From NCBI RefSeq assembly GCF_016026235.1, contig NZ_CP065613.1: a stretch of 64,000 nt of DNA. The stretch is one strand, 5' to 3'. The notes below the pieces were generated by a model, which made no database searches, had not been told where the DNA came from, and worked only from the letters and a program-made list of their open reading frames with translations. Source of the DNA: Escherichia coli (GTDB lineage: Bacteria > Pseudomonadota > Gammaproteobacteria > Enterobacterales > Enterobacteriaceae). Each line of letters starts with the position of its first letter. Position 1 is the first letter of the stretch. Positions 7,723 through 49,200 of the stretch are shown here, in pieces. A program made the position numbers and the translations under genes.

Positions 7723-7869
7723 GATTCGCCTGAACATGCCCTTTTTTCGTAAGTAAGCAACATAAGCTGTCACGTTTTGTGATGGCTATTAGAAATTCCT
7801 ATGCAACAACTGAAAAAAAATTACAAAAAGTGCTTTCTGAACTGAACAAAAAAGAGTAAAGTTAGTCGC

Positions 7870-7978
7870 GTAGGGTACAGAGGTAAGATGTTCTATCTTT
7901 CAGACCTTTTACTTCACGTAATCGGATTTGGCTGAATATTTTAGCCGCCCCAGTCAGTAATGACTGGGGCGTTTTTTA
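7870..7978 (+). ncRNA. spf: Spot 42 small RNA
   Basis: sequence GTAGGGTACAGAGGTAAGATGTTCTATCTTTCAGACC...CCCCAGTCAGTAATGACTGGGGCGTTTTTTATT matches remembered Spot 42 including intrinsic terminator; conserved position between polA and engB. Confidence 0.9.
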
Positions 7979-9006: not shown

Positions 9007-9248
9007 ATAGAGCGAGGACGCTAACAGGAACAATGACTCAGGATGAGGGTCAGGAGCGCCAGGAGGCGAAGACAGAGGATTGTCAGGAAGACAAACGTCC
9101 GGAGACGTAATTAAACGGAAATGGAATCAACACGGATTGTTCCGGCTAAAGGAAAAACAGGGTGTGTTGGCGGCCTGCAAGGATTGTAAGACCCGTTAAG
9201 GGTTATGAGTCAGGAAAAAAGGCGACAGAGTAATCTGTCGCCTTTTTT
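9007..9248 (+). ncRNA. csrC: CsrC small RNA (CsrA-sequestering)
   Basis: about 240 nt between engB and yihI with about 13 GGA motifs (CAGGA/AGGA in predicted loops) and terminal hairpin ggcgacagagtaatctgtcgcc plus T-run; matches known csrC location. Confidence 0.85.
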
Positions 9249-9317
9249 CTTTGCTTGCTTTCTGTTAGATTCCGCCGCAAATCTATACTGAATAAAACGG
9301 CTAAAAGACGAACCATT

Positions 9318-10015: not shown

Positions 10016-11389
10016 ATGTCTGTACAGCAAATCGACTGGGATCTGGCCCTGATCCAGAAATATAACTATTCCGGGCCACGATACACCTCGTACCCGACCG
10101 CGCTGGAGTTTTCAGAAGACTTCGGCGAACAGGCGTTTTTACAAGCCGTGGCGCGCTATCCTGAGCGTCCATTATCTCTCTACGTACATATCCCGTTCTG
10201 CCATAAGCTTTGTTACTTCTGCGGTTGCAATAAGATTGTTACTCGCCAGCAGCACAAGGCCGATCAGTATCTGGACGCGCTGGAGCAAGAAATCGTCCAT
10301 CGTGCACCGCTGTTCGCCGGGCGTCACGTCAGCCAGCTGCACTGGGGCGGCGGAACGCCGACGTATCTGAATAAAGCGCAAGTCAGCCGCCTGATGAAGC
10401 TGCTGCGCGAAAACTTCCAGTTCAATGCCGATGCGGAGATTTCGATCGAAGTCGATCCGCGGGAAATCGAACTGGATGTACTCGATCATTTACGCGCCGA
10501 AGGCTTTAATCGCCTGAGCATGGGCGTGCAGGACTTCAACAAAGAAGTGCAACGTCTGGTTAACCGCGAGCAGGATGAAGAGTTTATCTTTGCACTGCTT
10601 AACCATGCGCGTGAGATTGGTTTTACCTCCACCAACATCGACCTGATTTACGGCCTGCCGAAACAGACGCCGGAGAGTTTCGCCTTTACCCTGAAACGTG
10701 TGGCGGAGCTGAACCCCGATCGTCTGAGTGTCTTTAACTACGCGCATCTGCCGACCATTTTTGCTGCTCAGCGCAAAATCAAAGATGCTGACCTGCCGAG
10801 TCCGCAGCAAAAACTCGATATCCTGCAGGAAACCATCGCCTTCCTGACGCAATCGGGCTATCAGTTTATCGGTATGGATCACTTTGCCCGTCCTGATGAC
10901 GAGCTGGCGGTGGCCCAGCGTGAAGGCGTGCTGCATCGTAACTTCCAGGGCTACACCACTCAGGGCGATACCGATCTGCTGGGGATGGGCGTTTCCGCCA
11001 TCAGCATGATTGGCGACTGCTACGCGCAGAACCAGAAAGAGTTGAAGCAGTACTATCAGCAAGTGGATGAACAAGGCAATGCGCTGTGGCGTGGTATTGC
11101 GCTAACGCGTGATGACTGTATTCGCCGCGATGTGATTAAGTCGCTCATCTGCAACTTCCGTCTGGATTACGCCCCTATTGAGAAACAGTGGGATTTGCAC
11201 TTCGCTGATTACTTTTCGGAAGATCTCAAGCTGCTCGCCCCGTTAGCAAAAGATGGGCTGGTGGATGTGGATGAGAAGGGAATACAGGTGACGGCGAAAG
11301 GTCGCTTGCTGATCCGCAACATTTGCATGTGCTTTGATACCTATCTGCGCCAGAAAGCGCGGATGCAGCAGTTCTCACGGGTGATTTAA
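10016..11389 (+). CDS. hemN: oxygen-independent coproporphyrinogen III oxidase (radical SAM)
   Basis: ORF 10010..11389; radical-SAM CxxxCxxC motif (CHKLCYFCGC); ATG at 10016 with GGAAGGAG RBS. Confidence 0.95.
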   Translation: MSVQQIDWDLALIQKYNYSGPRYTSYPTALEFSEDFGEQAFLQAVARYPERPLSLYVHIPFCHKLCYFCGCNKIVTRQQHKADQYLDALEQEIVHRAPLFAGRHVSQLHWGGGTPTYLNKAQVSRLMKLLRENFQFNADAEISIEVDPREIELDVLDHLRAEGFNRLSMGVQDFNKEVQRLVNREQDEEFIFALLNHAREIGFTSTNIDLIYGLPKQTPESFAFTLKRVAELNPDRLSVFNYAHLPTIFAAQRKIKDADLPSPQQKLDILQETIAFLTQSGYQFIGMDHFARPDDELAVAQREGVLHRNFQGYTTQGDTDLLGMGVSAISMIGDCYAQNQKELKQYYQQVDEQGNALWRGIALTRDDCIRRDVIKSLICNFRLDYAPIEKQWDLHFADYFSEDLKLLAPLAKDGLVDVDEKGIQVTAKGRLLIRNICMCFDTYLRQKARMQQFSRVI

Positions 11390-11455
11390 ATAGTGAATGG
11401 CGCTTCGTTTACAAAGTAGAAAACGAAAGCGCCATCAATGTGCTGAGAACAAGAT

Positions 11456-11548
11456 TGCCTGATGCGCTACGCTTATCAGGCCTACAAAACCTGTTGAAAA
11501 TATTGCTTTTGTAGACCGGATAAGGCGTTCACGCCGCATCCGGCATGA
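11456..11548. repeat. REP/BIME palindromic units downstream of hemN
   Basis: gcctgatgcgctacgcttatcaggcctac ... gtagaccggataaggcgttcacgccgcatccggca. Confidence 0.75.
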
Positions 11549-11578
11549 ACAAAGAGCACTTCATCAGCAATTTGAAAC

Positions 11579-11689
11579 TCAACTAAACAGCCCAATCATC
11601 GCGGCACACAGCACGGCAGCAACGGCAGTTTGCGGTGTGTGGCTGTCAACTGCGCCACTCGATACCAGATTAATTATTGATTCCAGCAT
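11579..11689 (-). CDS. yshB: small hydrophobic protein YshB (36 aa)
   Basis: hand-translated 36-codon ORF MLESIINLVSSGAVDSHTPQTAVAAVLCAAMIGLFS, not in supplied track (below length cutoff); position between hemN and glnG matches remembered yshB. Confidence 0.6.
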   Translation of the reverse strand: MLESIINLVSSGAVDSHTPQTAVAAVLCAAMIGLFS

Positions 11690-11800
11690 AATGACTCTCC
11701 CCGTTTTCCGGGCAAGATCATACTGAACTTATCGGAACAGTAAAGCGCAAAATACCAGCAATTTGCGCTCAATAATCAATCTTTACACACAAGCCGTGAA

Positions 11801-13210
11801 TCACTCCATCCCTAACTCTTTTAACTTACGCGTCAGAGTGTTGCGGCCCCAGCCGAGTAGCCGCGCCGCTTCCTGTTTATGCCCCTGCGTATGTCGCAAC
11901 GCGGTCGTCAGTAACGTCCGCTCCAGCTCTGGCTGCGCTTCGGAAAGCAGATTTTGATGACCGGAACGTAGCGCCCGATCTGCCCACTGTGCTAACAGCG
12001 TTGCCCAACTGTCCGGTTGCATTTGCGAAGTACTCTCCGCAACCGTTGATTCAAACAGTTCACCGGGCAAATCCTGAATCAACACTTCCTGCCCGGCGGC
12101 CATCACTGTTAGCCAGCGACAGGTGTTTTCCAGCTGGCGTACGTTACCCGGCCACGCCAGACGCGTCAGAGCAGCTTCGGTTTCCGGATGCAGCAACTTC
12201 GCTTCTACGCCCAGTTCGCGCGCAGCAACCTGTAAAAAATGGCGTGCCAGGCGGGGAATATCTTCCCGACGCTCACGCAGTGGCGGCAGATGAACGCGGA
12301 TAACGTTCAGGCGGTGGAACAGATCCTCACGGAACTTACCTTCCTGCACCCGCTGTTCGAGATTCTGGTGAGTGGCAGCGATAATCCGCACATCCACTTT
12401 CACCGGCGCATAGCCGCCAACGCGGTAAAACTGACCGTCTGCCAGCACGCGCAGCAAACGCGTCTGCACATCCAGCGGCATATCGCCAATTTCATCGAGA
12501 AATAATGTACCGCCATCAGCCTGTTCAAAACGCCCCTGACGAATGGTATTCGCGCCGGTAAACGCGCCTTTCTCGTGACCAAACAGTTCTGATTCGATCA
12601 AATCTTTTGGGATAGCTGCCATATTCAGCGCGATAAACGGCGCTTTGGCTCGCGGACTGTGGCGATGCAGGGCATGAGCGACCAGTTCTTTACCGGTACC
12701 GGATTCGCCGTTAATCAGCACGCTAATAGAAGAACGCGAAAGCCGACCGATAATACGGAACACGTCCTGCATGGCTGGCGCTTCGCCGATGATATCGGTC
12801 GTTGGGCCGTTAAGCTGAACATTACGCGGCTGCTGCTGTTCCTGGTAATGACTGATGGCGCGCTCAACCAGCGCCACGGCTTCGTCGATATCAAACGGTT
12901 TGGGCAGATAATCGAACGCCCCTTGTTGATAGGCGCTGACGGCAGCATCCAGATCGGAATGTGCAGTCATAATGATGACCGGAAGCATCGGATGGCGCTG
13001 TTTAATCTGCTTGAGCAGCGCCAGCCCGTCCATTCCCGGCATACGGATATCTGAAAGCAGCACATCCGGCGTTTTGCTCGCCAGCGCCTCCAGTACCTCC
13101 GCGCCGTTCTCAAATGTCGTACAGGTTAAACCCGCTCCAGCGAGCGCACGTTCAAGCACCCAACGGATGGAACTATCGTCATCGACTACCCAGACTATCC
13201 CTCGTTGCAT
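11801..13210 (-). CDS. glnG: nitrogen regulation response regulator NtrC (sigma54 activator)
   Basis: ORF 11801..13270; start taken at [12 protein letters not shown]; receiver domain, AAA+ sigma54-interaction motifs ([14 protein letters not shown]), C-terminal HTH. Confidence 0.95.
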
Positions 13211-16006: not shown

Positions 16007-16076
16007 CTGCACCATGATGTGAATGTTGCACCAATATAGTGCTTCAATGGAAACATTAAGCACCATATTGGTGCAA
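16007..16076. promoter_or_regulatory. NtrC enhancer binding sites upstream of glnA
   Basis: dyad motifs TGCACCA-N-TGGTGCA family: gctgcaccatgatgtg, tgcaccaatatagtgc, gcaccatattggtgca. Confidence 0.7.
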
Positions 16077-16226
16077 TGACCTTTGGATAACCCTTTTTAT
16101 GCTCCGTGAAAGCGATCACAAAGGGACTCTGCAATACTTGTTTGCGGAGGATGTTTGTGATCCTGTTTTGTAGTGCGATTAATCCGTGTACAATAACGCG
16201 CTATTTCTAATGCCTGAGGCAAAGTT

Positions 16227-46270: not shown

Positions 46271-49200
46271 TTACACCTTTTCCACATTCACAAGGAAGGA
46301 CTTAAACTCCGGCGTCTGCGTGTTCGCATCACCAACGAATGGCGTTAACGTATTGGCAATAAAGCCTTTTTTAGCTACGCCTTCATAACCCCAGTGAATC
46401 GGAATACCGATGGTATCGATATCTTTGCCGTTCGCTTTCAGCGTGCGAATACGTTTGGTCACCACCGCTTTGGCCTTGATATAGCCACGGTTGGAGGAGA
46501 CTTTCACGGTATCGCCCTGGGCAATGCCAAGTTTATTCGCCAGCGACTCCCCGATTTCCACAAACTGCTCTGGCTGCAAAATCGCGTTCAACAGCGCGTG
46601 TTTGGTCCAGTAGTGGAAGTGCTCGGTCAGACGATAGGTGGTTCCGACATACGGGAACTTATCGGCTTTACCCAATGCTTCGGCGTCGTCTTTAAAGATA
46701 CGTGCAGCCGGGTTCGAGATAACGTTTGGATGCAGCGGGTTAGTTCCCAGCGGCGTTTCAAACGGCTCGTAGTGTTCCGGGAACGGACCTTCCGCCATCT
46801 TATCGAGGGCAAACAGACGCCCCATGCCTTCCTGCTGCATGATAAACGGCCCGACGCCGCTGCCCGGAGGCGCTGCGCTGTAGTCCGGAATATCCCAGCC
46901 GGTCCACTTAGTGCCGTCCCATTTCAGCAACTGACGCTTCGGATCCCACGGGTTACCCTGCGGATCTGCGGAGGCGCGGTTATACAGAATGCGGCGGTTA
47001 AGCGGCCATGCCCATGCCCAGCCCAGCGTGTTACCGAGGCCAGACGGATCGGCGTTATCACGACGCGCCATCTGGTTGCCTTCCGGCGTCCAGCTACCGG
47101 CGAAAATCCAGCAACCACAGGAAGTTGTACCGTCATCGCGCAGTTGGGCGAACGAGCTAAGTTGTTGGCCTTTCTTGACGATAACCGCACCGGTTGCCGG
47201 ATCGGTAATATCGGCCAGCGCCTTACCGTTACTCTCCATCGCCACTTCTTCTGAAGATGGCTCATGCGGAATGGCGTAGTTCCAGGTCATGTTCAGCACC
47301 TGGTCCGGGTTCGCGCCACCCTGTTCGGCATACATCTTGCGCAAGCGCAGGAAGATACCGGAGAGGATCTCGCCGTCAGTCAGCGCAATCCCCGGGGCGT
47401 CCGCACCTTTCCAGTGCCACTGTAACCAGCGACCTGAGTTAACGATAGAACCGTTCTCTTCCGCGAAGCAGGTCGATGGCAGACGGAACACTTCGGTCTG
47501 GATCTTCGACGAGTCAACTTCGTTCAGCTCACCGTGGTTCTGCCAGAAGTTAGAGGTTTCAGTGTTCAGCGGGTCGATGGTGACGAGGAACTTCAGTTTC
47601 GACAGACAACCGATCACTTTGTTTTTGTTCGGGAATGAGGCAACAGGGTTAAAGCCCTGGCAGATATAGCCATTGACCTTGCCCTCTTTCATCATCTCGA
47701 AGTATTGCAGGACGTCGTAGCCTTTATCCCACTTCGGCAACCAGTCAAAGCCCCAGCTATTTTCCGCCGTCGCTTTATCACCAAAGAAGGCCTTCATCAT
47801 AGAGACGAAGAATTTCGGGTAGTTGCCCCAGTAGTTTACCTGGCCTTCCAGCAGCGGTTTTGGCGTGTTGGCGGTAAGGTAGGTTTGCAGATCGGTCTGC
47901 TTCTCGCTTGGCAGCGTCATGTAACCTGGCAGGCTCTGCGACAGCAGCCCCAGGTCCGTCAGCCCCTGAATATTGGAGTGACCGCGCAGGGCGTTAACGC
48001 CGCCGCCAGCCATCCCCATGTTACCGAGCAGCAGCTGGATCATCGCCATCGTACGAATGTTTTGCGCACCAACGGAGTGTTGCGTCCAGCCGAGGGCATA
48101 CAGGAACGAGGCAGTTTTATCGTGAGCACTGGTTTCTGCGATGTATTCGCAGACTTTCAGGAACGCGTCTTTTGGCGTACCACAGATGTTTTCAACCACA
48201 TCTGGCGTGTAGCGGGAAACGTGCTGTTTCAGCAAGTTCCACACGCAGCGCGGATGTTGCAGCGTGGTATCGCGTTTGGCGAAGCCGTTTTCGTCCAGTT
48301 CATAAGTCCAGGAGGATTTATCGTACTTGCGTTTTTCCGCGTCGTAGCCGGTGAACAGGCCATCTTCAAAGCCGTAATCCTCACGCACGATCAGGCTGGC
48401 GTTGGTATAGGCTTCGGTGTATTCGCGGTTGAATTTTTCATTGTTCAGCAGGTACAGCAATACGCCTGACAGGAAAGCAATGTCAGTACCGGAACGAATA
48501 GGGGCATAGTAGTCAGCCACCGCCGCCGTACGCGTAAAGCGAGGATCGATCACAATCAGCTTCGCGCCATTGTGAATTTTGGCTTCCATCGCCCAGCGGA
48601 ACCCGACCGGGTGAGCTTCAGCGGCGTTACCGCCCATCACCACGACGAGGTTGGCGTTCTTGATGTCGACCCAGTGGTTGGTCATCGCACCGCGACCAAA
48701 TGTTGGAGCAAGACTTGCTACCGTTGGTCCGTGTCAGACACGCGCCTGGTTGTCGACCGCGAGCATACCCAGCGCGCGGGAGAATTTTTGCGTTAAATAG
48801 CCGGTTTCGTTACTCGACGCGGAAGCACACAGCATCCCGGTGGAGAGCCAGCGGTTAACAGTCACGCCTTCGGCGTTTTGCGCAATGTAGTTAGCATCGC
48901 GGTCTTCTTTCATCAGTTTGGCGATGCGATCAAACGCCTCTTCCCAACTGATTTGCTGCCATTTATCAGAACCTGGCGCACGGTATTCCGGAAACTTCAG
49001 ACGGCTTTCGGAGTGGATGAAATCCACCAGGCCAGCGCCTTTCGGACAAAGTGCACCGCGGTTGACCGGGTGATCCGGATCGCCTTCGATATGGAAGATA
49101 GATGCTTTGGCGTTTTTTGCTCCGTCACCGAGGCTGTACATCAACAGCCCACAGCCTACGGAACAATAGGTGCAGGTATTACGGGTTTCGCGGGTGCGCA

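Follow-up and report, generated by a model that had tools for sequence, protein, structure and literature searches.

Does the 36-codon hydrophobic open reading frame (ORF) that lies on the minus strand between glnG and hemN in a 64,000-nucleotide stretch of Escherichia coli DNA (the whole of which is termed the window here) constitute a genuine gene, and, if so, what might its product do? An ORF of this size is by itself no evidence of a gene, since 84 ORFs of at least 20 amino acids overlap the surrounding 5.5 kb. It had first been picked out by hand translation of the sequence; the ORF listing of the window contains exactly this frame with the same translation, MLESIINLVSSGAVDSHTPQTAVAAVLCAAMIGLFS (36 amino acids), which an ORF lister run at its default cutoff of 60 amino acids would omit. 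The frame cannot be longer, as no other start codon lies between its ATG and the preceding in-frame stop. Its start, which had been placed about 110 bp from the glnG stop, lies 111 nt from it. The gene context in the window is that of the E. coli glnALG region, i.e., Spot 42, CsrC, yihA, yihI, hemN, yshB, glnG, glnL, and glnA; the features of the immediate locus are collected in Table 1. Elsewhere in the window, Rfam places the CsrC sRNA at positions 9007-9260; the RefSeq annotation of a near-identical strain has a frameshifted “hypothetical protein” pseudogene corresponding to about 9036-9202, a call that probably sits on the csrC gene. Further Rfam matches are Spot 42 (7860-7978), the ES222 sRNA (16038-16145), a SECIS_3 selenocysteine insertion element on the minus strand (48681-48739), and two tandem copies of the REP-derived naRNA4 (59429-59591).

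Table 1. Features of the glnG-yshB-hemN locus in the window
Feature	Coordinates	Strand	Description
glnG (ntrC)	11801..13210	-	Same-strand neighbor upstream of yshB; stop codon at 11801-11803
Hairpin GAGCGCAAA / UUUGCGCUU	11743..11770	-	After glnG; present in the MFE fold
Sigma-70-type promoter	11717..11744	-	-35 TTTACT (11744-11739), 16-nt spacer, -10 TATGAT (11722-11717); consensus scan
Shine-Dalgarno GGGGAGAG	11695..11702	-	Core GGAG 7 nt before the yshB ATG; read from the sequence
yshB CDS	11579..11689	-	36 codons plus TGA stop; ATG start at 11689
REP/BIME-type repeats	11440..11560		In the yshB-hemN spacer
Long GC-rich hairpin	11396..11436		Between the convergent yshB and hemN; fold of 11385-11585
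hemN	about 10016..11389	+	Downstream neighbor, convergent with yshB

The first part of the question has a direct answer: the ORF is the already annotated E. coli gene yshB, and the finding is correct, not new. Scored against the NCBIfam equivalog NF033841 (small_YshB), whose cutoff is 34, the peptide reaches 72.1 bits (E = 2.4e-20), with residues 1-36 aligned to profile positions 1-40. It is identical to E. coli K-12 YshB, WP_000893994.1 (the comparison being with the C600 translation), which both strain 14EC033 and the K-12 derivative C600 have as their yshB product. The original prediction had called the ORF yshB-like on account of its position, and indeed C600 encodes the identical protein between glnG and hemN; the K-12 YshB sequence given in Table S1 of a published screen is likewise identical to the ORF in the window (PMC10470546). 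Between the window strain and C600, the coding sequences show two synonymous base differences. The K-12 gene (b4686) further shares with the window copy its glnG-hemN position, promoter, and Shine-Dalgarno sequence, and, besides the two synonymous bases, the loci differ only in the noncoding spacer after the stop. Among 5,426 complete E. coli genomes, the 111-nt coding sequence is found as a single copy in 5,425, at 90-100% identity, with a yshB annotation on every match listed. The 451-bp intergenic region is recovered by megablast at a coverage of at least 80% in 5,249 of the 5,426, and is annotated “yshB: YshB family small membrane protein” in E. coli genomes, with glnG and hemN flanking it. 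Two of the 5,425 matches lie on plasmid-labeled records, and these, together with the single genome with no match, could represent mislabeled replicons or a deletion. The local copy of Pfam-A gave zero matches for the peptide, and the precomputed annotations of a homolog name a Pfam entry, PF28018:YshB. PADLOC returned zero matches, and a search of PDB sequences with the family profile found no homolog with a solved structure.

The natural history of this gene beyond E. coli was traced by scanning one genome per species (GTDB representatives) with a degenerate DNA motif, H-T-P-Q-T-A-x-x-A-[VI]-[LM]-C-A. This recovered 64 species, all labeled Enterobacterales except for two MAGs labeled only “Proteobacteria bacterium.” The genera include Escherichia, Salmonella, Citrobacter, Enterobacter, Klebsiella, Kosakonia, Pluralibacter, Siccibacter, Leclercia, Trabulsiella, Phytobacter, Pseudenterobacter, Izhakiella, Brenneria, and Affinibrenneria, along with an Erwinia sp. 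The count of 64 is a lower bound, since the YshB of a more distant lineage (see below) fits the motif yet falls outside these matches. The motif fixes 11 codons, and hence the invariance of several core residues across the 64 loci is partly by construction; the 28 codons that it leaves unconditioned are given a separate dN/dS below. In all 64 species, the frame ends exactly 20 codons past the conserved His, with the stop at this one fixed position being TGA in 22, TAG in 22, and TAA in 20. The start is at ATG-(L/F)-(E/D)-(S/T) in 63 loci, the remaining one being cut by a contig end. The encoded protein has 36 amino acids in 49 species, 40 in 14 (through a 4-codon in-frame insertion), and 35 in 1, and the 64 distinct coding sequences yield only 41 distinct proteins. 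Upstream of the ATG, the apparent translation shifts frame between genera, indicating that the frame is conserved only from the ATG onward.

Over the 28 codons free of the motif, column entropy at codon positions 1, 2, and 3 is 0.63, 0.30, and 1.14, respectively. The pooled Nei-Gojobori dN/dS of the yshB frame, at 0.27 for these codons (0.15 for all codons), is the lowest of the six frames; the control values are 0.75 and 3.1 for the shifted sense frames and 1.0, 0.34, and 3.4 for the antisense frames. The fixed start and stop, the in-frame indels, the third-position variation, and the low dN/dS in the yshB frame constitute a protein-coding signature; judged by this pattern of substitution, yshB is a protein-coding gene under purifying selection, and the comparative data raise the ORF far above chance. 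The original prediction had proposed conservation across the Enterobacteriaceae as a check, and, as a refutation, the absence of either codon-level conservation or a translation signal. What we find is coding-type conservation in 64 species, codon conservation together with a Shine-Dalgarno sequence, and a published account of detection by mass spectrometry. The evidence for translation comes from this mass-spectrometry paper (PMC12529367) and from conservation.

The YshB family is narrow, as a phmmer search yielded only 15 matches at E <= 1e-3 among 1.84 billion cluster representatives. Of these, 14 are either short YshB variants of enterobacterial type or frameshifted calls; the other is a 1,691-amino-acid protein with no aligned stretch. 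These matches, which are independent of the search motif, have the same YshB core with few exceptions. In several of them, a YshB N terminus is joined to an unrelated C-terminal tail or the N terminus is extended; such entries look like frameshifted or mis-started calls in public assemblies. One of these entries runs on into sequence equal to a window ORF at 11482-11595.

YshB is a hydrophobic peptide of unusual composition. The protein from the window has a GRAVY of 1.12, with two acidic residues and one His, and Lys and Arg are absent from all 41 variants, which makes it net acidic throughout. Bitopic membrane proteins are normally oriented by positive charges, and a peptide free of Lys and Arg is unusual among them. 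Its hydrophobic core is limited to residues 21-36, about 15 residues; over 19 residues, the Kyte-Doolittle score peaks at 1.53, and on the Hessa scale, the position-independent sum is favorable only at a 15-residue window, turning positive at 17 residues or more. AlphaFold2, run on a 42-sequence alignment, predicts a helix at residues 2-13, a break at 14-16, and a second helix at 17-35, with a mean pLDDT of 74. The best-conserved block is (S/G)HTPQTA...A(V/I)(L/M)CA, much of which is fixed by the search motif; strongly conserved positions outside the motif are L2, E3, S4, G12, A24, A30, G33, and S36. One face of the helix carries a small-xxx-small ladder made up of T21, A25, A29, and G33, which we infer to be a surface for helix-helix packing.

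The peptide also figures in a published screen for substrates of the intramembrane protease RseP. In its Table S1, a TM segment is predicted at residues 15-35 in an N-out/C-in orientation, with no experimental topology entered for YshB; the method named is TOPCONS, with TMHMM named for most other rows shown (PMC10470546). Tagged YshB was reported as a “class I” substrate of RseP in all four assays, with cleavage both in vivo and in vitro, for N-terminally tagged constructs only, and it was also clipped by further proteases (PMC10470546). RseP substrates are described as usually having an N-in/C-out orientation. The idea of a single-TM protein, as it had been put forward for this ORF, is plausible but marginal in view of the short core, the best window score, and the lack of Lys and Arg. 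Besides the short core and the absence of positive charges, a predicted topology at odds with the usual orientation of RseP substrates also weakens the membrane model.

The signals that precede the gene are conserved along with it. The -35 and -10 hexamers of its promoter are almost invariant in an alignment of 62 species, with variation in the sequence of the 16- or 17-nt spacer between them, and every locus in the species alignment with upstream sequence has a G-rich run 5-9 nt before the ATG. The literature credits yshB with its own promoter. Taken together, an independent, efficiently translated, monocistronic gene with a sigma-70-type promoter is strongly supported. A candidate leader hairpin (CCCG-loop-CGGG) over the Shine-Dalgarno sequence, conserved by eye, was rejected, as RNAalifold gave -0.15 kcal/mol with zero compensatory pairs. 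Two noncoding elements upstream of the promoter are conserved in most of the 62 species. One is a TGTAAAG box on the minus strand soon after the glnG stop (11781-11787), which may represent an UP-like element or the site of a regulator. The other is the block AAAnTGCnGnTATTTTG (11751-11769) just upstream of the yshB -35, which is part of the putative glnG hairpin.

The accumulation of the peptide in cells is supported by the literature. Native YshB is among the small proteins identified by mass-spectrometry workflows, a result that the discussion of the paper credits to top-down proteomics (PMC12529367), and it has been predicted to reach more than 11,000 copies per stationary-phase cell (PMC7549839). 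In one study, His-tagged YshB was undetectable. For the Salmonella ortholog, a role in promoting virulence and replication inside host cells has been reported (Bomjan et al. 2019, J Bacteriol 201:e00314-19, as cited).

Downstream of the gene, the spacer toward hemN is of a different character. Divergence from C600, in the form of REP-type indels, starts directly after the yshB stop codon: about 49 nt of REP-type sequence present in K-12 are missing from the window strain, which in turn carries 10 nt absent in K-12. An inverted repeat spans 11472-11489 and 11507-11524, and a subthreshold match to the REP-derived naRNA4 at 11514-11550 is the only Rfam match at the locus. Per E. coli genome, the median number of places matched by the 451-nt query that includes this spacer is 39, against one for the coding sequence alone. 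The fold of 11385-11585 has an energy of -82.7 kcal/mol (z = -8.5), and its long GC-rich hairpin is a candidate for a terminator shared by yshB and hemN; a simple terminator scan found no canonical intrinsic terminator in the yshB-hemN spacer.

On the other side, the neighborhood is notably fixed. In every related locus with enough flank, glnG lies upstream on the same strand, and the distance from its end to the motif is 153-175 nt in all but five loci, which corresponds to an intergenic spacer near 100-112 nt. Among the 64 species, hemN is convergent in all loci with flank, at a distance that varies from 58 to 636 nt. In the more distant lineage mentioned above, whose GlnG is 92% identical, glnL, glnG, a 100-nt spacer, and a 37-amino-acid yshB are kept, along with a TTTACA-17-TATCAT promoter and GGGAGG, and a gene for an SBP_bac_5 solute-binding protein takes the place of hemN. 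As glnG is kept where hemN is replaced, the conserved linkage of yshB is with glnG rather than with hemN. The hairpin after glnG, which may be the glnALG terminator, overlaps the yshB -35 with its 3' arm and U-rich tail; over 51 species, 89% of its cells are paired, with only 3 compensatory cells, a number reached by 21 of 500 shuffles.

This arrangement raises the question of whether yshB has some bond with nitrogen control. One possibility is that its placement next to glnG reflects a real tie of YshB to NtrBC and glutamine synthetase, exerted via the T21-A25-A29-G33 face on a partner; we regard this as unlikely. Such a tie might take the form of transcriptional interference, of coupling by read-through, or of YshB modulating a membrane component for nutrient uptake. 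If true, modulation of nitrogen or nutrient uptake by YshB would explain the intracellular-growth defect in Salmonella.

A second version, to which we assign a still smaller chance, is that yshB is a dual-function gene that specifies a protein and in addition has a regulatory role linked to nitrogen control, through its mRNA or through read-through from glnALG. The tight conservation of the glnG-yshB spacer in nearly all species, even where hemN is replaced, the overlap of the glnG hairpin with the yshB -35, and the conserved noncoding boxes between glnG and the promoter would fit such a role. However, the leader has no structure showing covariation, the covariation of the glnG hairpin is weak, and yshB was reported not to be induced under nitrogen limitation (PMC9731577); the constant spacing, for its part, can reflect merely a compact arrangement of terminator and promoter.

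That the conserved element might be a noncoding RNA downstream of ntrBC comparable to NrsZ, or a product of the glnALG 3' UTR, with the ORF being incidental, has very little probability indeed. It draws on the conserved promoter and short transcript directly downstream of glnG, on the positional parallel to NrsZ pointed out in the literature (PMC9731577), and on the lowish dN/dS of antisense frame 1, which is, however, expected of a mirror frame. Against it stand the three-base periodicity, the in-frame indels, the fixed stop position occupied by three different stop codons, the conserved start codon and Shine-Dalgarno sequence, the lack of a significant Rfam match on the locus, the reported detection of the protein (PMC12529367), and the absence of induction under nitrogen limitation (PMC9731577). 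With strong codon periodicity, a sigma-70-type promoter, and no Rfam match, the locus departs from regulatory sRNAs of the NrsZ/GlnZ type, and its frame-specific conservation excludes an NrsZ-like noncoding RNA.

Finally, YshB is a small hydrophobic peptide, and the screen that showed its cleavage by RseP showed the same for the Hok toxins (PMC10470546), but that it is a type I toxin-like peptide of the Hok/Ibs/Ldr class acting by membrane damage is highly improbable, given that yshB is single copy and core in E. coli with synteny fixed across genera, that no antisense RNA family (Rfam) or strong antisense promoter (consensus scan) is found at the locus, that the peptide lacks positive charges, that high abundance in stationary phase is reported for it (PMC7549839), and that the literature cited on the protein reports no toxicity.

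We therefore return to yshB as a known, monocistronic gene, a reading that we hold to be almost certain; its peptide would be anchored in the membrane and might pack against a partner. In the proposed sequence of events, the conserved TTTACT-16-TATGAT promoter directly after the glnG hairpin would drive yshB, giving a transcript with a short leader of roughly 20 nt and a strong Shine-Dalgarno sequence. The product is a 36-residue, acidic, Lys/Arg-free hydrophobic peptide, predicted to comprise two helices, a short one at the N terminus (residues 2-13) and, after a break, one at the C terminus (residues 17-35). The Ala-rich hydrophobic part of the latter (residues 21-36) might serve as an inner-membrane anchor. 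By analogy with other enterobacterial small membrane proteins, this helix could pack on a transmembrane helix that belongs to a larger partner or to a second copy of YshB, with the T21-A25-A29-G33 ladder, the conserved HTPQTA cap, and Cys28 possibly making up the contact face. YshB would in this way modulate a larger membrane protein, following the pattern of MgrB, AcrZ, MgtS, and CydX, and its level might be limited by intramembrane proteolysis through RseP.

Found by comparative genomics and models of ribosome-binding sites (Hemm et al. 2008, as cited), yshB was described in 2008 and is annotated in essentially every E. coli genome, so that the present case is a rediscovery. It is useful as a positive control: a hand-translated ORF of 36 codons, described as missing from an ORF track, proves to be a real gene under strong constraint, and scanning with a degenerate motif combined with codon-level analysis recovers this verdict without any annotation. 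The literature cited on YshB gives no mechanism for it, despite its high reported abundance and the reported Salmonella virulence phenotype. The absence of Lys and Arg, the HTPQTA cap and Cys, the small-xxx-small ladder, and the invariant linkage to glnG provide experimental handles on it.

Several parallels with known systems help place the gene. One is Salmonella YshB, an ortholog at the same locus, of which the copies in S. enterica subsp. arizonae and diarizonae have 36 amino acids and the same core; what is reported on virulence and intracellular replication applies to Salmonella alone, with nothing comparable known in E. coli. Among characterized small proteins, MgrB, AcrZ, MgtS, and CydX resemble YshB in size class and in having a single predicted hydrophobic helix, and two of them, MgrB and CydX, were also among the candidates of the RseP screen (PMC10470546). 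YshB differs from these four in having no sequence similarity to them, no Lys or Arg, no known partner, and a shorter core that lies at the extreme C terminus. In position, the counterpart is the NrsZ sRNA of Pseudomonas aeruginosa, which is located immediately downstream of ntrC, as is yshB (PMC9731577). NrsZ is an RpoN-dependent noncoding RNA (PMC9731577), whereas yshB, which is not nitrogen induced, is a protein-coding gene with a sigma-70-type promoter.
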